Assembly: GCA_963666985.2 (NCBI GenBank)
Contig: CAXXIA010000001.1
Span: 1,152,001 to 1,216,000, forward strand
Source: Spirochaetia bacterium
GTDB lineage: Bacteria; Spirochaetota; Spirochaetia; DSM-2461
Direction of reading: 5' to 3'
Length of the DNA: 64,000 bases
Of this stretch, positions 23,880-36,836 are shown in pieces; position 1 is the first letter of the stretch; every line of letters begins with the position of its first letter. Position numbers and translations under genes: made by a program. The notes beneath the pieces are model-generated. The model worked only from the letters and a program-made list of their open reading frames with translations. It ran no database searches and was not told the DNA's origin.

Positions 23880-25013
23880 ATGATTCTGAATGAAAACGTC
23901 GATCGAAAAATCATTCCCATCGCGGGAGGCAAAGGAGGCGTCGGGAAAAGCATTCTGGCGGCGAATATTGCTCTCAGCATGGCGCTCTATGGCAAGAAAA
24001 CCGTTCTTGTCGATCTTGATCTCGGCGGTTCCAACCTTCATACACTGCTCGGAATGAAAAACATTCATCCCGGAGTGGGTAATTTTCTATCGGGGAAAAA
24101 ATGTTCCCTTCAGGATTTGGCGGTTCCCACGGAATGGGAAAACCTCTTCTTCATACCCGGCGATGTTCTGGTCTGCGGAATCGGAGAACTCACCAAATCG
24201 ATAAAAGCTCGTGTGGTGAAGGGACTGCTGGAAATTGACGCCGACTACATTATTATCGACCTCGGCGGCGGGACGAATTTTACGGTTATCGACTTTTTTC
24301 TTATATCGAATTCGGGTTTCATCGTTACCACTCCTCAGAGTACGGCGATTATGAACGCATATTCTTTTTTGAAGAATTATGTTTTTCGTTTTCTTCAGCG
24401 GGCCTTTTTCCAGGATAAAACCATCACGGCCTATCTTAAAAATATCCTGAAGGAACAGCAGCCGGGCGGATCATCCTCCGTTCCAAGCATTATCGGCGGT
24501 ATCTACGAAATAAGCTCGGAAGCGGGAGAAAAAGCCGAGGCTTTTCTTGAGGTTCTGCAGCCCAAACTCATACTGAACAAACTCAATGAAATGGAAGACG
24601 TTCTCATCGCGCAAGGACTGCGCGATCTGTGCGCAAAGAACCTCTCTCTCGATCTCGAGTGTCTCGGGACCATCATGAACGACACGTCCGTCGACGAGTC
24701 CATCGATGTGCAAAGGCCGTTCATTCTCGATCATTCCGAAGAAGTCGTGACTCAGGAGATTCATAGGATTTCCCAGAAAATCATCCAAAGCGGACAATTT
24801 CCCAGGATGCCTCTGGAACTCGATTATTATGCCGACACATTTGAACTGGCTCTGATGGAAACGGAAAACGATATGGCGGCAAACCGTAAAAACACCGAAA
24901 GCGCGGAGAAAGAACGATACGATATCGACAAACTTCTGGAACTGGTCCGTATTCAGCAAAGTAAAATCATGGAACTCCAGAGTACCGTGAAAATACTATC
25001 GATGAATCACTGA
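23880..25013 (+). CDS. MinD/FlhG-like P-loop ATPase
   Basis: GGKGGVGKS, VDLDLGGSNLH, IDLGGGT, VTTP; C-terminal coiled-coil-like tail. Confidence 0.88.
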   Translation: MILNENVDRKIIPIAGGKGGVGKSILAANIALSMALYGKKTVLVDLDLGGSNLHTLLGMKNIHPGVGNFLSGKKCSLQDLAVPTEWENLFFIPGDVLVCGIGELTKSIKARVVKGLLEIDADYIIIDLGGGTNFTVIDFFLISNSGFIVTTPQSTAIMNAYSFLKNYVFRFLQRAFFQDKTITAYLKNILKEQQPGGSSSVPSIIGGIYEISSEAGEKAEAFLEVLQPKLILNKLNEMEDVLIAQGLRDLCAKNLSLDLECLGTIMNDTSVDESIDVQRPFILDHSEEVVTQEIHRISQKIIQSGQFPRMPLELDYYADTFELALMETENDMAANRKNTESAEKERYDIDKLLELVRIQQSKIMELQSTVKILSMNH

Positions 25014-25103
25014 AACCTTTATGAAATACCCGATGCCGCAGGGGCTTATCGAGTCCGTTTCAACAATTCACCGATAAAAGGACGTTCTTTCCGCCCATCG
25101 CCC

Positions 25104-25658
25104 TTAACCCAGGCCGAAAGGAACCATCAGTTTCGCAAGAGGTGCATCAATAACGTCACAGGCTTTCTTGGCATCAGTTCTCGGAACGCTTAAGGTCTTC
25201 CAGAATGACTGTTCAAAAAAGCCGAGAATCGTTCTCTGAGTCGATTCTTCTTTGTAGACGATATAGGAGGTGTTCAGTCCCGTTTCATTGGAGATTGTAA
25301 AGGATGTGTAGGTTTCAACCGGTTCCTTCGCAATCATGATTTTTTCCTGACGCTTCGTCGTATAGATATCCAGCTCTTTGATACGATAGGGAATACGGTG
25401 AGCGTCGTCCCGGTAGGCCGGCTCCACATGCTTCGCGCTGTAATTCAGGGGTTCAAAGAGGACGAAGAGCTTTTTTCCGTCGGCCTGAAACATAATCCCC
25501 TCTTCCATCATGTAGATGTCTTTCACATTTCCGTAAGAAATAACTTCATATCGCGCGTACCTGGAAGAATCATTCAGTAATTCCGTGATAATGAATCCCC
25601 CTTCGCGGGGCAACTCATTACTGCTATAAGCTTCGAAGAGATCCATGATCTTGGCCAT
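25104..25658 (-). CDS. Hypothetical protein
   Basis: 184-aa ORF from MAKIMDL with an AAGGAG ribosome-binding site and its own promoter. Confidence 0.8.
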   Translation of the reverse strand: MAKIMDLFEAYSSNELPREGGFIITELLNDSSRYARYEVISYGNVKDIYMMEEGIMFQADGKKLFVLFEPLNYSAKHVEPAYRDDAHRIPYRIKELDIYTTKRQEKIMIAKEPVETYTSFTISNETGLNTSYIVYKEESTQRTILGFFEQSFWKTLSVPRTDAKKACDVIDAPLAKLMVPFGLG

Positions 25659-25677
25659 ATTCGCTCCTTCTAGCCTG

Positions 25678-25706
25678 AGTATAGAAAGGGTGTATAAGGT
25701 TGTCAA
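25678..25706 (-). promoter_or_regulatory. Sigma70-type promoter TTGACA-N17-TATACT
   Basis: Read directly from the sequence upstream of the 25104-25658 gene. Confidence 0.7.
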
Positions 25707-25735
25707 TTTTCATTTATCGGCCCTAAGATGCAACC

Positions 25736-26572
25736 ATGGAAGTTCGCCGCGCCCTGGCCCTCTTTAAAATAGAGGGCCGTATACCCATTGATGAACTGAA
25801 CGCCGCTTTCAGGTCTCTGGTAAAAAAATATCATCCGGATAAAGTTCGCGACTATCCGGAATGGGCTCATGAACGAATGGCCGAGATAAACGACGCATAT
25901 GAGACTCTGGCCTCATGGATTGCAAAGTCCCGGGAACAAACGCCGGAGCAAAATGACGTTTATAACGAAACCGAGACGGAAGAGCCTGCGGATTTCAAAA
26001 AAAGCGAAGACATTCCGGAAATGGAGGGCCGGCTCGGGAAGGAATTCGAGAACGCCTATGCAATTTTTCTCGACGGTCTCGGACTCTACTACCAGTACGG
26101 CCTTGAAAATCCCTCTTATCGCACCGAAGGGGTTCGACGCTTCCGGTATCGGGAGTCTCTCAGAACCGCGAAAAGGGGACGGGATATACTGGAAGACTGC
26201 GCATCGGAAACCCGCCATCCGGTTATCCGCGCCGTCGCTAGATTTTCCCGCCTTTCGATAGCTGATATGGATCTCGGCTTTCTCGTATTTTCGGAAACGC
26301 AAAAGAGCGCAAAGAAAATGGACGAGCGCTTCAAGGCGGCGAAAAAAATGTTCGACGAAGCCGTAAAGGTCTACCTTTTTCCGGAACTTGTACCGAATCA
26401 CCTCCATGCGAAGGTCCGTGCCGGTTTGTATTCCTGCTACACCGAATTCGTAATCTACCTGACGATGTTCCCGAAAGGAGAACGCCGAAAAGCGGCGATA
26501 CTTGCCGCCGCCCGATATGATGCGTTCATGGATTTGATTGAATTAAGAAATGCCGGCCGGCTGGATTTTTAA
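25736..26572 (+). CDS. J-domain-containing protein
   Basis: N-terminal FRSLVKKYHPDK...MAEINDAYE. Confidence 0.85.
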   Translation: MEVRRALALFKIEGRIPIDELNAAFRSLVKKYHPDKVRDYPEWAHERMAEINDAYETLASWIAKSREQTPEQNDVYNETETEEPADFKKSEDIPEMEGRLGKEFENAYAIFLDGLGLYYQYGLENPSYRTEGVRRFRYRESLRTAKRGRDILEDCASETRHPVIRAVARFSRLSIADMDLGFLVFSETQKSAKKMDERFKAAKKMFDEAVKVYLFPELVPNHLHAKVRAGLYSCYTEFVIYLTMFPKGERRKAAILAAARYDAFMDLIELRNAGRLDF

Positions 26573-26573
26573 G

Positions 26574-28302
26574 AAAGGGGCTGTCTCATAAGAGGCGGCC
26601 CTTTTTCATGTCTGGAAGAATTCCCTTCTGAATTCAAGGGTGGTAGAATTCTTCATGGACACTAAAAAGAAGGCTACATTCAAAGATTACGAAATCAGCC
26701 AACAGATGCTCCTGCCTCCAAGTCTCGATGAACTGCTTCCCGCAAACCATATATCCCGCACAATCAACAACTTCATCGACACGATGGATACCAGTGAGCT
26801 CTTCAACGCCTATCCGGGAGGCGGTGCCAGCAGCTACCACCCGGTGATGATGCTGAAGGTTCTGGTGTTGGCCTACTCGAAACAGCTGTATTCCTGTCGT
26901 CAAATCGCAGACGCTCTTCGTGAGCAGATATGCTTCATGTGGATCAGTGGTAATAACCGTCCTGATTTCCACACGATAAACAGATTTCGTAACGGTCCAT
27001 TGAAGAAGAGCATCGAGAAAATCTTTGCCTCAATGGCCAACAGCCTCATCGAGAGCGGACATGTCCAGATGGAGAACTACTTTCTCGACGGCACAAAAAT
27101 CGAATCAGCAGCTAACAAATACACATGGGTATGGGGCCGGGCGACAGACAAGTTCCAGAAGCGCCTGGCCGGCAATATGGATGAGCTTTTCGAATACATC
27201 GACCGCATCAATGAAGAAGAGGATGAGAAGTACGGCGACCATGACCTTCCCCATGTGGATCCTCAAGGCAGGCCGATGTCGGAGATTCTCGAAGATGCGG
27301 TATCCAAGCTCAATGAAGAGCTGCGCAAGGATCGGGAGGAGCGAGAAAAGAAGGAGATTCAACGGAGATTGAATACCGCTAGCAAGGACTATCTCCCTCG
27401 TGCCAAAAAGTATGAGCAGCAGAAGAGAATCCTCGGCGACCGAAATAGTTACTCGAAAACAGACTATGATGCGACTTTCATGCGGATGAAAGAAGACTAT
27501 ATGAAAAATGGTCAGCTCAAGCCCGGGTACAACATCCAAATGGGTACTGAGAACCAGTTCATCCTCGGATATAGCATCCACCAGAGTCCCGGTGACTCCC
27601 TGACATTGCCGCTACATATGGAGAAACTGAAAAAGAATCTGAAACGCTATCCGAAAAGAATCATTGCTGATTCAGGATATGGTAGTGAAGAGAACTACCA
27701 GTGGTGTGAGGATCATGGTGTCGAGAAGTACATCAAGTTCAGCTACTTCCACAGGGAGCGGAAACGGAAGTTCAAGAAGCAGATTCATATGAAAGAGAAC
27801 TGGGACTATCGTGCCTCTGATGATACATACCGGTGCCCCAAGGGTCGCCGATTCAAACACGAGGAGACCAGAATCTCGAAAACAGGTTCAGGATTTCCGA
27901 CCACTGAAAAAAGGTATACAGGCCCTGGATGCCAAAGGTGTTCTCTCCGAATCCGGTGCTGCAAATACGGAGGCAAAGAGCGCATCCTGACGGTTCGTCC
28001 AAACCTGGAACGGCATAAGTCTGAAGTGCGCAAGTTGCTGACTTCAGAGGAAGGACTGAGAATGCGCTCTCTCAGGCCGATTGAAGTCGAATCTGTATTC
28101 GGAGATATCAAGACGAATATGGGATTTCGGAGATTCCGAACCAGGGGATTGAAGATGGTCAGTACTGAATGGGGACTGTTGAGTATGGCTCATAACATGA
28201 GGAAGCTACAGAAACGATAAGGGGATGGGAGGGAACCTCCCGTCTTCGGAGGTCAACCAAATTTTAAAAGGGGCTGTCTCAAACTAATGAGACAGCCCCT
28301 TT
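26574..28302 (+). mobile_element. IS1182-family insertion sequence with palindromic flanks
   Basis: Transposase bracketed by AAAGGGGCTGTCTCA at both ends, each forming a hairpin with the downstream sequence. Confidence 0.85.
26655..28220 (+). CDS. IS1182-family transposase
   Basis: YHPVMMLKVL, PDFHTINRFR, LDGTKIE, SKTDYDATFMRMKED, LKPGYN, IADSGYGSEENY, VESVFG, HNMRK. Confidence 0.93.
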   Translation: MDTKKKATFKDYEISQQMLLPPSLDELLPANHISRTINNFIDTMDTSELFNAYPGGGASSYHPVMMLKVLVLAYSKQLYSCRQIADALREQICFMWISGNNRPDFHTINRFRNGPLKKSIEKIFASMANSLIESGHVQMENYFLDGTKIESAANKYTWVWGRATDKFQKRLAGNMDELFEYIDRINEEEDEKYGDHDLPHVDPQGRPMSEILEDAVSKLNEELRKDREEREKKEIQRRLNTASKDYLPRAKKYEQQKRILGDRNSYSKTDYDATFMRMKEDYMKNGQLKPGYNIQMGTENQFILGYSIHQSPGDSLTLPLHMEKLKKNLKRYPKRIIADSGYGSEENYQWCEDHGVEKYIKFSYFHRERKRKFKKQIHMKENWDYRASDDTYRCPKGRRFKHEETRISKTGSGFPTTEKRYTGPGCQRCSLRIRCCKYGGKERILTVRPNLERHKSEVRKLLTSEEGLRMRSLRPIEVESVFGDIKTNMGFRRFRTRGLKMVSTEWGLLSMAHNMRKLQKR

Positions 28303-28331
28303 ACGAGTTTCTTCGCAACTGAGATTTACAA

Positions 28332-30953
28332 CTAAGATGCGGCCTCTTTGTTCTTCAGATTAATCTGCGCTATGGTAAGCTTCGCCACGGGGATGCCGTA
28401 GGGAGAACAGCTGACGTAATTTAAACCGGCTTCCATGCAGAAGGCGATATTCTCCGGCTCGGCGCCGTGTTCGCCGCAGAGGCCGCACGTAAGATCCGGT
28501 CTGACGAAGCGTCCTCTTTCCGTGGCCATGCCGACGAGCTCTTTTACCGGCTCCTGAAGATACTGGAACGGATTTTTGTCCAGAAGGTCATACTCGTTGT
28601 AATCGGTGAAGAATGAGTTGAAATCGTCGCGGCTCAGTCCGAGACAAGTCTGAGTCAAATCGTTCGTTCCGAAACTGAAAAAGTCCGCATAGTTGGCGAT
28701 TTTATCCGCAAGGAGGGCCGCCGCCGGCAGCTCGATCATGGTTCCCACGTGATATTCAATCTTTTCCTCGCCGTTCTTTTCGCGGAGTTCTTCTTCTATC
28801 TGCCTGATTCCGACAATTTCAAATCCTTCGATTTTCTTTCCGAAACGAACCGTTTTAACTTCCCTGGGGCTCATGATGATGGGAATCATGATTTCAGGCT
28901 TACAGACGATCCCTTTATCTTTGCGGAGCTTAAAAGCCGCCTCAAAGATGGCTTCAACCTGCATACGATAAATCTCAGGGTATGTGATGGCCACACGAAC
29001 ACCGCGATGACCGAGCATGGGATTCACTTCGCTGGTCATGTCGCAGCGCAGTCTGATTTCGGCTTCGGGTGTTTTCGGATGATCTTTTTTGTAAAACGCG
29101 ATGAAATCATCCATCGTTTCCTTACTGTGCGGAAGGAATTCATGGAGCGGAGCATCAAGCAGACGGATGGTAACGGCTTTATCCTCCATCACCTCGAACA
29201 GTCCGTAGAAATCGCTTGCCTGCATCTTCTTGAGCTTCGTCAGAATCTTTTCGCGCTCATTCCTGTCGGAAGCAATAATGAGAGAACGGAAGGTCTGAAT
29301 ACGCTTTTCGTTGAAGAACATATGCTCGGTTCGGCACAGACCGATTCCGTCGGCAAGAAACTGCTTGGCGAGCTTGGCGTCTTTCGGCTGATCGGCGTTG
29401 GCATGAACATCAAAATCGAAGATCTGATGCTGCACTACTTCCAAGAATTCCAAAAGTCCGCTCTTTTCAATGTCGGGTTCGATCAAATCCAGCTTGCCGA
29501 AATAAATCGTGGGATCTTCATAGGAAGGAACATCCAGGCAGATATAATCACCTTCCGTAATCACCTTGTCACCGATTTTCAAACCTGCCTTGGAGAACAT
29601 GATATTCGGGTTCACCATGGCGACTTTACCCAATGATCGGGCGACAACCGGCGCATGAGAGGCATAACCGCCTTCACGGGTTAAAACGCCTTTGGCAGCC
29701 TCGATGGCCTTCACGTCCTCGGCATACGTTGAGTTCATCGCCAGAATGAAATTCGTCTCCAGTCCTCTTTGACTTGCGATCCGGAACTCCTTCATCAAGC
29801 TTTCGGTATTGAAGAAGACTCGGCCGACGGCGGCGCCCATGGCGCCGGAGATGCCGCCGGTAACGGAAGGAACTTTCGTGGCGGATCGTTTATCGATAAT
29901 GGGATGCAGAATCTCGGAAAGACGTCCGGACTGAACGGTATTGATGACATACGCATCATCAACGACTTTTTTCGAAAGCAAATCCAATAAGGTTCTGATT
30001 TCGGCCTGCGCCGATTTACCGGGAACACTCGATTGATCGATAATCCAGAGCTTTCCGTTCTCGACGTTAAATTTGATATTTCGAATTTCTTTGTAGGATG
30101 TTTCCAGCTGCTTGCCGATTTTCTCCAGTTTTTCCAAATAGGTCTTGCTGATCTTGCGAATCGGCTGCCCCGCGGCTTCCGTGGCATCAAAAGCATTCAG
30201 GAAGAAATCACCCGTTATAACATCTTCACCCGTTATGGAATCGCGCGTGGAATAACTGCCGAAGAAGCAGTCTTTGCCGTAATTCCCGAACGTCATCGCC
30301 TGAACGAGGATGGCCGAATCACTTAAGGTTTCACTGTCGGCAAACAGTTTGCGGAACAGTCCTTTGACGAATTGGAACTGTTCGGTCGCATGAGCAAAAA
30401 TCTCTTCCGGATAGATGGCTTTCACCTTCTCAAGGATTTTCTTGATGGCCGCTGTGGTCTTGGCTTTCTTAATTTCTACAATTGTTTTTTCAAGAAGTCC
30501 CCGCCGCTCTTCGTCGCCGGTCGTTAAGAGCTCCAGTTCCATAATTCGTTGCAGAACTCCGCGATACTCGTGGTAGGCGAAATCCTCGCCGACGAAACCG
30601 GCAAAGCCGTCGATTGTCGTATCGCATAATCCGACATTATGAATGCTGGAGAATGTATGAACCATATTCAGCATGGGACTGACGACCAGCTTAATCAAAA
30701 GCGGATTATCCTTATCCCACATCTTTTCCAGGATTCCGCCCATTTTGTTAAAAGCGTTCTGATAAATTGAATCGTGGGCCTCGGGATCTTCTTCATCCTC
30801 AGCCAGGAATGCTTCGGTTAAAATGAATCCGGGCAGAATGGGGATTCCCAAAGACGCCAGATCCATAAGGTTCCTGCCGCGCATTCCAAAATGCTGGATG
30901 ATATCCTCATCTTTCGTGAATTCGCTGCTGCTAAATGAAAATATTTCTTTCAT
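28332..30953 (-). CDS. PPDK-like PEP-utilising protein with a degenerate ATP-grasp domain
   Basis: PPDK architecture with GGYASHAPVVAR, GIGLCRTEHMFF, NPMLGHRG, TMIE, FSFGTNDLTQ, GLCGEHG; N-terminal catalytic motifs altered. Confidence 0.9.
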   Translation of the reverse strand: MKEIFSFSSSEFTKDEDIIQHFGMRGRNLMDLASLGIPILPGFILTEAFLAEDEEDPEAHDSIYQNAFNKMGGILEKMWDKDNPLLIKLVVSPMLNMVHTFSSIHNVGLCDTTIDGFAGFVGEDFAYHEYRGVLQRIMELELLTTGDEERRGLLEKTIVEIKKAKTTAAIKKILEKVKAIYPEEIFAHATEQFQFVKGLFRKLFADSETLSDSAILVQAMTFGNYGKDCFFGSYSTRDSITGEDVITGDFFLNAFDATEAAGQPIRKISKTYLEKLEKIGKQLETSYKEIRNIKFNVENGKLWIIDQSSVPGKSAQAEIRTLLDLLSKKVVDDAYVINTVQSGRLSEILHPIIDKRSATKVPSVTGGISGAMGAAVGRVFFNTESLMKEFRIASQRGLETNFILAMNSTYAEDVKAIEAAKGVLTREGGYASHAPVVARSLGKVAMVNPNIMFSKAGLKIGDKVITEGDYICLDVPSYEDPTIYFGKLDLIEPDIEKSGLLEFLEVVQHQIFDFDVHANADQPKDAKLAKQFLADGIGLCRTEHMFFNEKRIQTFRSLIIASDRNEREKILTKLKKMQASDFYGLFEVMEDKAVTIRLLDAPLHEFLPHSKETMDDFIAFYKKDHPKTPEAEIRLRCDMTSEVNPMLGHRGVRVAITYPEIYRMQVEAIFEAAFKLRKDKGIVCKPEIMIPIIMSPREVKTVRFGKKIEGFEIVGIRQIEEELREKNGEEKIEYHVGTMIELPAAALLADKIANYADFFSFGTNDLTQTCLGLSRDDFNSFFTDYNEYDLLDKNPFQYLQEPVKELVGMATERGRFVRPDLTCGLCGEHGAEPENIAFCMEAGLNYVSCSPYGIPVAKLTIAQINLKNKEAAS

Positions 30954-31025
30954 GGCTCTCTCCCATGTGGTTACACAGAAAGCGCCCCGACTCAAAGCCG
31001 GGGTTCGGAATAGGCCGCTAGGCCG

Positions 31026-32018
31026 TTAAAAGAGTTGAAGTATCGTACCCGGTGCTCCATGGAGGAACGCCTCAAATCGCTGGCTGGCGCCTTCAAAAAG
31101 ATATTTTCTTAATTTTGAAAGATCCGTTGGGTTATCTCCGGCGACACTGAACATAATCGGGGTACCGTGCTTTACCTTACCCCATTTGAAAAGGGCATTT
31201 ATATCGTTAATCCGTTCACCATCATACCAGATAAGAACATCAAGATGAGGATACTTGAATCGATAGCTTTCAATAATCCTTTTCCAGGCCTCAACATTCC
31301 CGTTATGAAACAATTCGTTCGTAACATTGACGCCGATCTTGGCCGTAAGTTTCTTCGATCCGCCCGTCTGCGGAGGCGGAACGACGCTTTGAGAGGCCGG
31401 AGATTCTTCCGATACGGAAGCACTCTTGACAGGAGGGGCCTGCGGTGCCGGCTTCTCTTCTTCCAAATACCGCTTAAGACGGTCGGATCCCTTGTAGCCG
31501 GCCTTTCCTTTTGTTTTACCGCCGTAGAGCAGCGAAAAAACATCGGCAACGGCGCTTTCCAAAAGATCGGCTTTTACCTCGCCCGGCGATCCGACATAGC
31601 ACACGATGTGCTCATCTTTCGCCAAAGGAAGCGCCGCTTCCCAGGGACCGGGATCTTCCGGATTTAAAAGATGAATTCCGTTATTGGCATCGGTATAAAC
31701 CAATACCACCTGCAGTTTGTTCCAGCCCTCGGCGACCTTGGAGAGTCCGTCCATGGTTTCAACATTCTGTTTCAGATTTTCCGAAGCAAACGCATAGCCG
31801 AATTTTTCGGCCAAGAGAATGTTCACAACCGGACGGATTTGGAATTCCTCAATCTTTTCTTCGTCAAGAGCGGCATTGAGGATGTCGGCCAGATTATATC
31901 CCTCGCCGACATCCCCTGAAAATTCCTGCGCCGTCCGGAAGTGGCGCAAGGCTAAGTTGTATCCGGCCCTGCGGGCCAGTAAATTCAGCTGGTTATTCCG
32001 GATGGACGCAGTCATCAT
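31026..32018 (-). CDS. cfpA-operon protein with a C-terminal HPr-like domain
   Basis: N-terminal domain, Pro/Ser linker, then VNVTNELFHNGN...YDGERIN...KVKHGTPIMFSVAGDN, which resembles HPr. The CDS is secure; the domain call is inferred. Confidence 0.75.
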   Translation of the reverse strand: MMTASIRNNQLNLLARRAGYNLALRHFRTAQEFSGDVGEGYNLADILNAALDEEKIEEFQIRPVVNILLAEKFGYAFASENLKQNVETMDGLSKVAEGWNKLQVVLVYTDANNGIHLLNPEDPGPWEAALPLAKDEHIVCYVGSPGEVKADLLESAVADVFSLLYGGKTKGKAGYKGSDRLKRYLEEEKPAPQAPPVKSASVSEESPASQSVVPPPQTGGSKKLTAKIGVNVTNELFHNGNVEAWKRIIESYRFKYPHLDVLIWYDGERINDINALFKWGKVKHGTPIMFSVAGDNPTDLSKLRKYLFEGASQRFEAFLHGAPGTILQLF

Positions 32019-32024
32019 AAGTCT

Positions 32025-34002
32025 TTACATCTCACTCAATTCATCGAGGTTGACTCTCCGCTTACCGCGGGAGCGAGGAGTTACATCGGCTTTGCCCTTC
32101 GGCTTGGCGGAGTCCGTTTCATTCTTGGACTTGATGGCCTCGGCATACTGATTCTGCACAGGCGCAACGGGCTCTTCGGCCGAGAAGCTCTGATTGATAT
32201 CGCTTCTCACCGTGGAACGGCGGCGCTTGAAGGAGGCGAATGCCGCATCCTGGAATCCCTTGGAAACACCGTTAAGGAACTCATTTAAGACGTTGGCCAT
32301 GGCGTTCAAGACATAGCGCTTGCGCTTAATGCTGGTAATGTCCACGTCCAGAATAAGACCCGGCTGAATATGATAGGGGTTGATGGAGTAATCAAAACTC
32401 TCGAACTGTCTCTCGAGGAAATCGATTCTCTTATCCAATTCAACCCGTATCTTGGGATTCTCATATCCGAAAGTCATGTTGACTTTCTCACGGGCGGCCC
32501 GAATCATCTTCTTCAGCAGATCCTTTTCATAAAGGTAAGTCTGATTCAGCCTCTCGACATCGGTATCGTCGGCTTTGAGTTCAAGAATCTCGTTCCAGAG
32601 TTTCTCCTGCTCTTCATAAATGGGATCGCCGTTCTTCTCCTTCATTTTCTTAACCTTGCCGCTCACTTTGTCGGCCAGGTCGTCGAAATCGTTGACGGCT
32701 CCCCATCCCTTCTTATTGTCCTGATAAACAACCTCGGCGATATCATAGACACGCTGAATTTCCAGAGCGTACTGCTCCATCTGCTTATCGTAGGCCCCGC
32801 GCAAATTCTCAAGCTGACCGTTGTCGTAGAACTTCAGCTTCATCTGATAGCGTTCATCGGGAAGACGTGTCGGATCGACATCCTCGTATTCACGAACAAT
32901 CAGTTCGCGGGCGTTCTTGAGGTTTTCGATGTACTGATAACCCATTTTGGAGGTATCGAGGATGGAGGTAAGATTATTAACCGCCGTATTGAAGCCGCGG
33001 TTCCGGATATTTTCGATGTCGATAATCCTCTTGATATTCTCACGAATATTCTGAGGATCGAATTCCTCCGGATCAATCTCCGCACGCAGACCTTCAATCT
33101 TTTCGACAAGATTCTTGGCCATGAACGTATAGCGCCTGGAATCCTCGTCGTCCTTGTCGTCGTCGGTAAACTCGGGAACCCTCTTGATTCTTTCGAACAT
33201 CAGTTCGGTATCGGACAGTTCCTCTTTGCCCTCATCGACAAGCTGATCCTGATATGCTTCGATTTCACGATCGATCATGTCGGTGATGGTCTTGGAAATC
33301 TGATCCTTGATGATGTTCTCAACGGTGGACTGATACTGAAAAATCGGGCTGATCAGTTCCGAATCGAGGATGTTGATGGACAGCTTCACATCGCTAACCG
33401 TCTTCGGCTTGAACTGATTGTCCTTGAAGGAACACTTAACAACCGAATAAGCGTTCTCTCCGCGGATAAAGGCGCCGACATCGGTTTTCTGCCGAAGCAG
33501 GGAGTTGGTCTCGTTTTCAAGATCGTTCATTCCCCGCTGAACATGTCCCTGAAGGTGGCCGTACATGTTCACGATGGACTTTTCGATTTCACCGGTGTTG
33601 AACTTATCCGCGCCGCCGACCTGATCCAGCAGTTCGGACATTTCCTTGGGTGTGTAGCGGGCAAGGTTCTTCGTCTCTTCCTTGTCGACGAACTGGCGAA
33701 CCTTTTTCACCATTTCGTCTTCAGTCGTGACGATGTACCGGTTGAACATGTTCTGATAGTTCTGGTTGAAGTAGTTGTAAACTTTTTCCTTCAATCCGCC
33801 CATAACTTCGAGTTCACTCAGAACTTCTTGAGGCAGCTTTGTCTGTACTGTGTTTGACGACTTTGTCAGCTTCTTCGTTGATTAGCTGATCGTACTCAGC
33901 TTTTTGATCGCGTCCCTCTTGTGCGAGGGAGTTGCGCGAACCGACGGCCGAAGGTTTCGTCGGGTGAAATACGTTTGGGCTTTTGGGAAGGTCACCAGCC
34001 AT
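32025..34002 (-). CDS. cfpA: Cytoplasmic filament protein CfpA (one frameshift at ~33854)
   Basis: [25 protein letters not shown] and [23 protein letters not shown] match Treponema CfpA as recalled; removing one T at 33853-55 joins the two ORFs into 658 aa. Confidence 0.9.
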
Positions 34003-34068
34003 ATGATTCTCCTTAGATCGATGGTTTGAGCTTCACGGATAACGTAAATCCGCGAGTTGTCTTACGAA

Positions 34069-34096
34069 ATTATATCCCCGCCATACGGTTTGTCAA
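34069..34096 (-). promoter_or_regulatory. Consensus sigma70 promoter for cfpA, TTGACA-N16-TATAAT
   Basis: Perfect hexamers about 65 nt upstream of the cfpA ATG. Confidence 0.8.
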
Positions 34097-34162
34097 AAGA
34101 CAAAGGCTATAAAAAACCGTCCTTTATTCATGAAATGCGGGACATTTAGCATTTTTTTGCCG

Positions 34163-36836
34163 TTACAGCAATTTTTCCGCCGCCATCCTCCTCATTGCTT
34201 GTGCTTTTGATTCCTCCGCAATTTTTTTAAGAACACTGCGAGCTTCACGTTTTTCATCTTCCGTGGAACTCGTATCATCCAATACGGAGAGGGCCTTATC
34301 GAAGGCTCTTTTATCTTCATCAACACCCAGCCGAACCTGCCTTGCCGCCAGGAACCAGATGGTGTCGCCTTTGCGAATCACATAATCTTCACCGCTGGGC
34401 ATTTCCAAATGATTGCCCGGATAAATCCAATCGGGATCGGCGCCGGTGAAGACGCGATAATCAAGATCTTTAAATCCGTTGAGAACGGCTATTTCATTGG
34501 CCGCGAGATGAATGTCGGCCTCCGTGATGCGAACGCCGTCGACCGTCAGATATGTTTCAATTTCCTGAGGAGTTCGAGGGGCTTTGTCGGAATCGACTAT
34601 GGTTGGTTCTTCCGGTTTCGTTATTATCGGTTCATCCTCTTCGTTCCGGTCCTCCCGCCCGGTTGAACTCACCTCTCCTTCCGACCCGCCTTGTTCCGCA
34701 GGTCCGCCTTCTCCGGTCGGATCATCCGGTTTCGTTATTGTCGGGCCATCCTGTTCATCCTGGTCGTCCCGCCCGGCCGAACTTATGTTTCCTTCAGATT
34801 CGCCTTGTTCCGCCGATGGCTGTTCGGCGGCAGATTCATTTTTATTTCCCCGAAGAACGCTTTCCCAAGGAGCGGAACCCGACAAATCCCAAGCGATGAA
34901 TCCGCCGATTAAAAGAAGAAGCAATAAAAGAAGGATCCACAGCCAAGTTCGTTTTTTTTCCGCGCCCGCCGCTCTTTTTTCCGCCTTTTGCGCTTTTTGA
35001 ACCGTGTGCATCCGATGTTGAATCGCGTCCGGAACCTTGCTGATCGGCGGAGGATGAGGAGGAAGAACGACCCGCATGATCGGCCGATGATGAGCCGGAG
35101 GTTTCCGATTCAGCCTCTTTCTTTCGTGTTTTCTCCTCGGCTTTCCGCTCCTCTTCCGGTTTTCTCAGCAAGGCGATCTGCTCTTCGGAGAGCGGTCCTT
35201 CCCCGCCCTCATCAAGACTCCGGATTAAGGCAAGAAGCCGTTCCTCATCCTGTTTCCACGGAGTCTCGTTCAAAGACGCGATTTCATGAATACGATCGTT
35301 GATTTCTTCCGCGGCTTTCACATCCGCCGGAACAAATCCTCTCTTTGCGACTTTCCAGAAGAGACGGGGGCTTGCGCCCAAATACAAATCACCCCAAAGA
35401 GGCAAGACCGGATTCGGACTTCCCATCTTGACCAAAAGCGCGGTGAGAATTTCGCCGATCTGCTGCGCGCATTTCGCCAAAGCATGCCCATCACCGGCTT
35501 TATTCTTCAGAACATCCGCCACGGTTACGGCATTGGCAACGAAGAACCATAAAGGGCTTCCGTTTTTCGGATCGCATCTTTTCGCGGCGTCTTTAACCTG
35601 CTGGACAGTCTGCTTCAGCAGAGGAGCGACCGAGACTTTTTCGGCCGCGATGTCGTCACTCAAGATTTTAAGAACCTTTTCCGTCAGAGTCGCGAGATGA
35701 ACCTCATCCTCTCCGAAATGATTCTTGAGATTCCCGAATATGGAAGAGAGGAATTTCTCAATCAATTGATTCTCGGGGAATTGCCCTCCGATAAAATTGA
35801 TCGGATAACCCCTGGGAGGCGTTACGGAGAAAGAGCCGCTTTCGGAAACAACCGAAAGAGATCCTTCCCGAATACCGACGCTTACACCCTTATCCGTCGG
35901 ACCGCCGAAGGAAATCTCAGGAAGTCCGGCTCTGTGTACCATCCAAACATTCTCTTTACGGCTTATGATGGAATCTCTGAACGTCGCTTTCTTGCGGCCG
36001 GAAACATCCGTTACTTCCAGCGTTGCCGGAACATCGCCCCTTTCGGGAAAAAGCAGACGGAGCTTTCTCAAAAGTTCGGGCTCGGAAGAAAGAACCCGAA
36101 GAGTTTTCTTTCGCTGCCGCATCCGCTTAATAAAACCAATGAACACGGCCGCTTCGTGAGAATCCATGTTCGCACCGGTCAAATCGTAAGCGGAAGATGT
36201 AATGAAGTCGGGATCAACTCCGTCATCCATAAGCTTCGCGACAAATCCGGGGTGCGCGGTGATGGAAAGAAGATCTCCCCCTTCGTACCAAAAACAGTTT
36301 CCATCGGCCAGGACAACTCCCGGTCCGCCGAAGTCCTGCTTGATGTATCGAAGAGGATTCCTTAAAAACTCAGCTTTGGCCTGTTCATAGAGCCGAACGA
36401 AATGGCCGTCGTCCTTTTCCCGTTTATGAAGATCGAAGATAACCTGTTCGTCGTAGCGCAGATGAATATTTCCGCTGGAATAAAACCAGACCATGTGGCG
36501 TTTCTCGCCGTCTTTTACCTTGCGGTAATCGGTCACTTCGTCCGTGGGCAGATCGAAGCTCTTGAAAAAAACGCTTCATGATTCCGACGACTTTCGTATC
36601 GCCGAGATAGAGTCCTTTACATTTGGGAACGTTCAAAATTTCCAGAAGAGGGTTCCCGACATGGTCATCTGTTATAACGGTCGTGGATATGACGTTATGG
36701 ACTTCGTCCGGAATCTCCGCGTATTTCCAATTCGAAGAAAGGGACGAACATCATCTCTTTCCTTACCGAGGTACACGATATAACACTCTCGGCCGATGCG
36801 GAAAATCCGTGATTCGGGAACGATGGGGTCGGACAT
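34163..36836 (-). pseudogene. Membrane protein with C-terminal LysM-like region, split by three apparent frameshifts (~890 aa if repaired)
   Basis: Four overlapping ORF pieces join by single-base fixes at 36717-18 (CC), 36565-71 (A7) and 34952-59 (T8); TM WLWILLLLLLLLIGG; DPDWIYPGN and YVIRKGDTIWFLA motifs. Confidence 0.7.
34601..34828 (-). repeat. Two-copy imperfect tandem repeat, 114-bp period
   Basis: TCCGGTTTCGTTATT at 34611 and 34725; protein EQGESEGNISSAGRDD..ITKPDDPT versus EQGGSEGEVSSTGRED..ITKPEEPT. Confidence 0.85.

Follow-up and report, generated by a model that had tools for sequence, protein, structure and literature searches.

A candidate phosphoenolpyruvate-driven phosphorelay formed by a pyruvate phosphate dikinase look-alike and a tandem HPr-fold protein at the spirochaete cfpA locus

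Introduction

In Enzyme I/HPr systems, including the permease-less, regulatory EI-Ntr/NPr, a phosphoenolpyruvate (PEP)-binding barrel and a swivelling phospho-His domain work with an HPr-fold partner bearing a His where helix A starts, and phosphate passes from PEP to the His of Enzyme I and on to His15 of HPr. Counterparts of these elements occur in a three-gene block of a Spirochaetia bacterium (lineage DSM-2461), which was analysed within a stretch of 64,000 nucleotides, hereafter the window (assembly GCA_963666985.2, contig CAXXIA010000001.1, positions 1,152,001 to 1,216,000, forward strand). On the minus strand the block comprises cfpA, encoding a cytoplasmic filament protein, then a gene for a 330-aa protein (the middle protein) and a gene resembling that of pyruvate phosphate dikinase (PPDK), whose product is called the look-alike here; no sugar permease is present in the block. 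An earlier reading of the sequence alone (the original prediction) had proposed that the PPDK homologue was turned into an Enzyme I analogue with a dedicated acceptor, coupled to the filament. We put the probability at roughly 55% that a PPDK duplicate drives a dedicated His-to-His relay, from PEP to His433 of the look-alike and on to His238 of the middle protein.

The locus differs from Enzyme I/HPr in both partners: the donor groups with PPDK and has an ATP-grasp relic in place of the helical HPr-binding domain, and the partner is 330 aa long, contains two HPr folds, lacks the H-A-R-P motif and is linked to a gene of the cytoskeleton. Kinship between Enzyme I and PPDK is already known (accessible part of PMC8100219). 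With PPDK (EC 2.7.9.1; Clostridium symbiosum structures 1ggo and 1kbl) the look-alike shares the order of three domains, the phospho-His and a complete PEP/pyruvate site, but it lacks the ATP and inorganic phosphate (Pi) residues and the regulatory Thr, its ATP-grasp domain is relaxed or deleted, and 56 of 61 genomes hold a canonical copy beside it. An HPr fold without His15, as in domain 1 of the middle protein and in stand-alone His-less homologues, is also used by Crh and other adaptors of this fold; in contrast, domain 2 keeps a His, and its Ser46 position corresponds to Asn274 or Ser/Thr/Ala275, depending on the register.

The same three genes occur in the same order in treponemes (TP0748-TP0747-TP0746; TDE0842-44), the middle one being TP_0747_N. 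The order given in the original prediction agrees with the accessible parts of the articles concerned, in which TDE0842 is cfpA, TDE0843 hypothetical and TDE0844 a putative PPDK (PMC3914990), and TP0746 is ppdk and TP0748 cfpA (PMC10013896, PMC8525777). As far as these parts go, the middle gene is 'hypothetical', the third gene a normal PPDK, with TP0746 treated as glycolytic (PMC10013896, PMC8525777), and no relay is proposed. The original prediction knew of no description of such a system, and none was found in the full-text literature by a search beyond whose reach most subscription papers lay; 'TP0747' gave no main-text match in that literature, and the accessible parts of PMC1665464, PMC2405797 and PMC2937029 contained nothing on this locus.

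A PPDK look-alike with an intact PEP half

The look-alike gene (28332..30953, minus strand; 873 aa from the ATG at 30953) aligned with C. symbiosum PPDK from one end to the other (E 3e-142). Its product consists of a degenerate ATP-grasp domain (30024..30953, minus strand; K22R, R92V, D321N, E323K and R337S, with Q335 kept), a swivelling His domain (29469..29888, minus strand; PF00391) with His433 (codon 29657-55) and with Ala431 in place of the regulatory Thr, and an intact PEP/pyruvate-binding domain (28359..29426, minus strand; PF02896, E 7e-74; R541, R597, D600, R650, E741, N764, D765 and C826).

For the site calls we adopted the residue numbering and what we take to be the catalytic roles of C. 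symbiosum PPDK. The window protein and 105 orthologues from 120 loci (n = 106) were surveyed in this numbering, and 15 loci were excluded (nine at contig ends, two with an internal break, one naturally short and three without an adjacent copy). Among the ATP and Pi residues, Arg92 and Glu323 were kept in none of the 106 and Asp321 and Arg337 in one each; Glu323 was replaced by Arg or Lys, a charge reversal, in 105. The regulatory Thr453 was found in 0/106 (Ala in 74, Ser in 31). The equivalent of the phospho-His455 was present in 105 orthologues, the remaining one being unreadable, and Arg561, Arg617, Asp620, Arg665, Glu745, Gly766-Asp769 and Cys831 were kept in 106/106, in agreement with the earlier claim that the phospho-His (codon 29655-57) and the PEP/pyruvate site survive. 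As a control, all 17 positions were intact in 15/15 canonical PPDKs from carrier genomes. The accompanying claim that the ATP/Pi residues are lost holds for most of them but not for Gln335, conserved in 106/106, and the Lys22 position is an invariant Arg (106/106). Because the Lys22-to-Arg change and Gln335 are both invariant, the N-terminal site counts as remodelled.

In 13 genomes with both proteins, mean pairwise identity of the look-alikes versus the canonical PPDKs was 0.57 versus 0.55 for the His domain, 0.62 versus 0.60 for the PEP domain and 0.36 versus 0.61 for the ATP-grasp domain. Since the domain identities match those of the canonical enzyme except in the ATP-grasp domain, the PEP half-reaction of the look-alike is, judged by this comparison, under undiminished selection and only the nucleotide half is relaxed.

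Against the PPDK profile TIGR01828 the window look-alike scored 644 bits, under the cut-off of 843, and the look-alikes of 61 carriers scored 490-740 bits, all 61 under the cut-off, versus 1121-1465 bits for canonical copies. Against the Enzyme I profile TIGR01417 it scored 123.5 bits versus a cut-off of 341.7, and its N-terminal domain aligned with the ATP-grasp domain of PPDK, not with the helical HPr-binding domain of Enzyme I. In a tree of PEP domains (53 rows), the look-alikes fell with PPDK rather than with Enzyme I, outside the canonical clade. The window's genome also encodes a canonical second PPDK, to which the look-alike is 34% identical. Among the 61 carriers, canonical PPDK over the cut-off was found in 56 (plus one split over contigs), Enzyme I in 60 and pyruvate kinase in 57; because 56 of the 61 also hold canonical PPDK, the look-alike is, by gene content, an extra copy beside canonical PPDK, Enzyme I and pyruvate kinase in most carriers. 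Judged from these residue patterns, the gene listed as a glycolytic ppdK in treponemes probably does not encode a dikinase.

One complete genome (G295) encodes a 585-aa look-alike in which the ATP-grasp domain is deleted and the His and PEP site are kept. Its gene (L156:7597-9351) begins 3 nt past a His-bearing partner gene, with cfpA ~160 kb away; this form was seen in one genome and is nested among ordinary look-alikes in the tree. At four other loci (L099, L112, L113, L158), look-alikes of ~965-970 aa carry an insertion of ~100 aa in the degenerate N-terminal domain.

Two HPr folds in the middle protein

The 330-aa middle protein (31026..32018, minus strand) belongs to the TP0747 family (3183 homologues; Pfam PF27497, named TP_0747_N) and consists of a helical N-terminal domain, a first HPr fold, a Pro/Ala linker and a second HPr fold, the topology of the fold being beta-alpha-beta-beta-alpha-beta-alpha. 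The AlphaFold2 (AF2) model had a predicted local distance difference test (pLDDT) score of 80.6, and the linker between the HPr-fold domains was disordered. Domain 1 (residues 75-167; 31518..31796, minus strand), recognised by its structural match to HPr, gave a VIA Z of 9.3 and a root-mean-square deviation (rmsd) of 2.2 A with E. coli HPr over 80 of 85 residues of the predicted model; its mean identity was 0.33 (39 sequences) and no His column precedes helix A.

Domain 2 (residues 225-314; 31077..31346, minus strand), folded alone by AF2, reached a pLDDT of 92.5. In a structure search the top 4 of 48,161 chains were HPr (Z 6.7-7.1; next fold 6.0), a repeat comparison gave Z 7.1-7.5 and rmsd 2.4-2.6 over 81 aligned residues with HPr or Crh in the top 27 rows, and the top 10 Foldseek matches were all HPr or Crh (E 0.008-0.02, none <0.001). 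Mean identity in domain 2 was 0.66, twice that in domain 1, and the stretches NELFHNGNVE and LFKWGKVK, which lie on helices A and B, are invariant; HPr meets Enzyme I through its helix A/helix B face. No HPr homology of the middle protein was found with NCBIfam profiles or in PDB sequences searched with the family profile, and the two HPr folds did not align with each other by profile. Thus, in the models, domain 2 is HPr-like in shape and not a member of PF00381. The original prediction had described an HPr-like C-terminal domain with a His (codon 31305-07), which stands, but as the single HPr domain of the protein, of which two were found.

His238 (31305..31307, minus strand) lies directly before helix A, the DSSP helix starting at the next residue, and by aligned ranges falls at HPr 14-15 (model residue 6 = HPr residue 1), which makes it the putative equivalent of His15. 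It was present in 97/97 members of sequence set A5, in 84/96 of a diverse homologue set and in 120/120 loci, including the split locus L092. As 80 of these loci were found with a pattern containing His238, the remaining 40, found with a hidden Markov model (HMM), are the fair test, and His238 was present in 40/40 of them. Helix B has Asn274 as its N-cap; at position 275, in the region of the HprK site Ser46 of HPr, 63/96 homologues have Ser or Thr and the window protein has Ala.

At L092, in a one-contig genome (G280), the middle gene is split in two frames between the HPr folds. Stand-alone versions of domain 2 that lack the His were 115-147 aa long (P0226, P0228, P0229, P0231, P0232, P0236, P0237, P0240 and P0242); two such proteins are named Deltaproteobacteria or SAR324, and accession numbers suggest that one is not encoded beside cfpA. 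Three long matches obtained with domain 2 proved to be Ig repeats and were discarded as false positives. A search of plasmids for the middle gene gave no match.

Co-inheritance of the three genes

Occurrence was scored in 401 genomes of the phylum, each at least 90% complete and, kin being included, not independent of one another. The middle gene was present in 131, cfpA in 132 and the look-alike N-terminal domain, at a threshold not passed by canonical PPDK, in 130, all of which were among the 131 with the middle gene; the exception was G295. Co-occurrence, which the original prediction had named as a check, was borne out, with all three genes in 128/401 genomes and none in 267/401; of the six discordant genomes, one was G295, with its short form, and the others were drafts of 80-290 contigs (five genomes). 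The three genes were missing together within family f2, where 13-14 of 55 were positive. In the best loci the partner and look-alike genes were always adjacent (80/80), and cfpA preceded them in 78 (the other two being cut by contig ends). In a set of 40 diverse loci, picked by hand and in part because they were exceptions, the two genes were adjacent in 37 and cfpA preceded them in 34.

Copies outside spirochaetes were also found. A divergent partner led to three metagenome loci (L166-L168), in all of which (3/3) the order cfpA-partner-look-alike occurred, and the partner at L166 and L167 has the same sequence as a protein named Ca. Lambdaproteobacteria. Their look-alikes, 25% identical to that of the window, have Arg in the Arg92 column and lack Lys22, Asp321, Glu323 and Gln335; these loci keep both His residues as well as Arg561, Arg617, Glu745, Asn768, Asp769 and Cys831. 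In a tree with these copies, whose branch is long and whose place is not fixed, a single look-alike clade was not rejected, with a p-AU (approximately unbiased test) of 0.325. One further pair was recognised by consecutive accessions, and relatives of CfpA are frequent among proteins that bear the name SAR324 or Deltaproteobacteria. Several CfpA proteins among P0256-P0375 carry the wrong name 'cytochrome c oxidase subunit II'.

Proposed relay and alternatives

In the proposed relay, PEP on the C-terminal domain would phosphorylate His433 with release of pyruvate, a step suggested because the PEP and His residues are intact and the half-reaction is known from PPDK and Enzyme I. The swivelling His domain, with no ATP site to serve, would then hand the phosphate to His238 of domain 2; Arg25, Arg291 and Lys/Arg294, newly fixed in the old nucleotide site, may, speculatively, replace the absent Arg17. 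In the third and weakest step, drawn from gene context, the His-less HPr domain and the helical N-terminal domain would tether the middle protein to CfpA filaments, and the PEP:pyruvate ratio would set the phosphorylation state of this filament-bound adaptor. The PPDK relic as an Enzyme I analogue with a dedicated HPr-like acceptor, the core of the original prediction, is supported by the residues, the folds, co-occurrence, the short form of G295 and the divergent copies. Complex models of the full look-alike with domain 2 scored 0.28 and 0.21 (mark 0.32); controls were not folded, and the result was counted neither way. If the relay is true, a PTS-like signalling chain (PTS, phosphotransferase system) has been reinvented from PPDK, that is, assembled from different parts.

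Several observations weigh against the relay. The structural Z of domain 2, near 7, is middling and comes from a predicted model, and the correspondence of His238 to His15, drawn from aligned ranges, needs a one-residue gap. The middle protein had no match to the HPr family PF00381 at E<=1 in Pfam, and hhalign against 31 spirochaete HPr sequences gave a probability of 0.6%. Where true HPr reads G-x-H-x-R-P in 31/31, domain 2 reads L-F-H-N-G-N, and the G-[IL]-H-A-R-P signature is absent. Conservation of His238 in the 80 pattern-found loci is partly by construction, and the His is missing from 12/96 diverse homologues (three full-length and nine stand-alone proteins of ~120 aa), from which it follows that the HPr-like fold can persist without it. 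The remodelled N-terminal domain of the look-alike may still bind an anion or a nucleotide. The gene cfpA was not adjacent in 6/40 diverse loci, in family f48 all three genes are present but apart, and CfpA was not among the five low-score partners of TP0747 in the accessible part of a T. pallidum two-hybrid supplement, which had no TP0746 row either (PMC2386257). Finally, cfpA is frameshifted in this assembly, so that the relay argument rests on the family and not on this copy.

The best placed of the alternatives, which we still consider unlikely, is a PEP/pyruvate sensor and scaffold without onward transfer, in which the look-alike would phosphorylate its own His433 and switch shape, and the HPr-fold protein would dock on the look-alike or on CfpA in a Crh-like manner, with His238 as an interface residue. 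The absence of the His from domain 1 and from the 12 homologues would fit such a role, as would the lack of an Arg17 equivalent in domain 2 and the fact that the NELFHNGNVE and LFKWGKVK surfaces are wholly invariant, so that His238 is not singled out. Docking alone, however, leaves unaccounted for the location of His238 at the HPr phospho-site position and the retention of His238, His433 and the PEP site together in the 25%-identical Lambdaproteobacteria-type copies.

We regard it as distinctly unlikely that the look-alike acts in metabolism, as a phosphotransferase whose small-molecule acceptor has changed (to a nucleotide, a sugar or another compound) and is served by the remodelled N-terminal domain, and that it is co-expressed with cfpA since both products are abundant. 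About 25 residues of this domain are invariant, including Arg25, Arg291 and Gln307, but it is the least conserved part of the protein and is deleted in G295. A complete genome of 1.14 Mb (G088), in which neither pyruvate kinase nor canonical PPDK was found, favours a metabolic role; against this, G088 has GTP-dependent PEP carboxykinase (PEPCK) and oxaloacetate decarboxylase, a known bypass. Nor would this role explain why the look-alike is so strictly paired with a His protein of HPr fold. Even without transfer, a treponeme ppdK that is probably not a dikinase would change metabolic models, and G088, a reduced genome, would then be without pyruvate kinase and a working PPDK, reliant on PEPCK and oxaloacetate decarboxylase.

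It is improbable that canonical Enzyme I phosphorylates the partner as a side branch of the ordinary PTS, with the look-alike as a reverse drain (from phosphorylated His238 through His433 to pyruvate) or a mere neighbour. Enzyme I is present in all but one of the 61 carriers, the window's genome has four Enzyme I and two HPr genes, and the steps are reversible (accessible part of PMC8100219); the partner, however, tracks the look-alike and CfpA rather than Enzyme I, genomes without the block such as G029 still have HPr, and no Enzyme I was found in G370, a 97% complete genome with the three genes. That the look-alike is an ordinary, divergent PPDK, as annotated and as assumed in the accessible parts of PMC10013896 and PMC8525777, agrees with its full domain order and end-to-end alignment with C. 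symbiosum PPDK and with its being the only PPDK-family gene found in 4/61 carriers, but it is highly improbable given the scores under the TIGR01828 cut-off in every carrier, the loss of Arg92, Asp321, Glu323 and Arg337 with the near-universal charge reversal at Glu323, and the branch separate from canonical PPDK in the tree.

The link to the CfpA filament

The coupling to the filament included in the original prediction rests on gene order and co-inheritance, and cfpA is unlinked in some lineages. With the odds clearly against it, we tentatively raise a wider possibility, a third, independent PEP:protein phosphotransferase chain with a PPDK-derived donor and a tandem-HPr carrier, ending at a cytoskeletal filament. 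In such a chain, phosphate would pass from His238 to CfpA (candidates His83 and His87) or would switch a filament-bound adaptor, and filament assembly, the segregation of chromosomes or division would be tied to the PEP:pyruvate ratio, both in spirochaetes and in bacteria of the SAR324/Lambdaproteobacteria type. If this is true, metabolism would feed directly into an intermediate-filament-like bacterial cytoskeleton, and such control of the cytoskeleton would be categorically new. It would also name two candidates for the unidentified filament partners; a title among the references of PMC3398590 mentions unidentified bridging and anchoring components. Mutants of cfpA in T. denticola show filamentation and chromosome condensation (accessible part of PMC3398590).

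The candidate acceptor in CfpA, offered as a lead only, is His83-x-Gln-x-His87 (33543..33557, minus strand; numbered from Met 33803). Both His residues were present in 97/97 spirochaete CfpA sequences, and among 120 distant CfpA sequences His87 was present in 116 and His83 in 94; across the 97, three His are invariant among 127 near-invariant residues, so none is singled out. The H-x-Q-x-H arrangement resembles the motif of IIA-Lac/Chb, though the match is not significant. An EIIA-Lac/Chb site in CfpA was considered and found no support, as four segments gave no PF02255 match and hhalign against one IIA sequence gave 0.35% (E 0.17). A search of the ESM Atlas with the N-terminal part of CfpA returned no usable match.

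Organization of the locus and neighbouring genes

The cfpA gene (32025..34002, minus strand; NF040882) is broken in frame near 33855 in the window: a first piece of 63 codons from 34002 is followed by a 592-aa open reading frame (ORF) from Met 33803, which scored 948 bits against NF040882 (cut-off 500). Both parts are in one frame in 101/101 related loci, and related-strain contigs X3 and X4 (one sample) have one base fewer at 33855/33856. A contig identical to the window stops at 33854, short of the frameshift site, and 3/13 gene places tested in this assembly are split. The frameshift is likelier an assembly error than a real mutation. One genome (G005) has three cfpA copies (contigs C97, C69 and C102), one of them inside the three-gene block.

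A putative sigma-70-type promoter, TTGACA-16-TATAAT (34069..34096, minus strand), lies 66 nt before the cfpA ATG (34002), as originally predicted for the three genes, with a 12/12 consensus match. It is the sole 12/12 site among seven sites in 27000-36000 (7.5 expected by chance overall), and a consensus match by itself is no proof of a promoter. In the 160 nt before cfpA in relatives, a promoter score of at least 10/12 was found in 49/98 loci versus 6/98 shuffles. On the minus strand, cfpA is followed after 6 nt by the gene of the 330-aa protein and this after 72 nt by the PPDK-like gene; in relatives the first gap has a median of 4 nt (111 loci) and the second one of 39 nt (117 loci). A GC-rich 8-bp hairpin with a weak T tract (30985..31003, minus strand) lies between the second and third genes; for this reason a single transcript for the three genes, as read from their arrangement, is likely only. 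In T. denticola, TDE0842-44 were repressed together in co-culture (Table 5 in the accessible part of PMC3914990).

Past the stop of the PPDK-like gene, a perfect 15-bp hairpin (28267..28302, minus strand), likely a terminator, abuts an insertion sequence (IS) element of the IS1182 type. The element (26574-28302, plus strand), lying against this hairpin, encodes a 526-aa transposase with DUF772 and DDE_Tnp_1_6, has 14 near-identical copies in the genome and shows a 15-nt direct repeat (26574-88 and 28267-81). Beyond it, at 23880-26572, are genes for a MinD/ParA-like ATPase, a 200-aa protein with no assigned function and a DnaJ-domain protein.

The gene before cfpA (34163-36536 and upstream, minus strand) encodes a C-terminal membrane helix and a LysM-like part. 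It is split in the window and forms a single ORF of 876-933 aa in the four relatives examined (L002, L004, L005 and L006). In most of the 80 best loci its C-terminal part, a candidate membrane anchor, is encoded upstream of cfpA.

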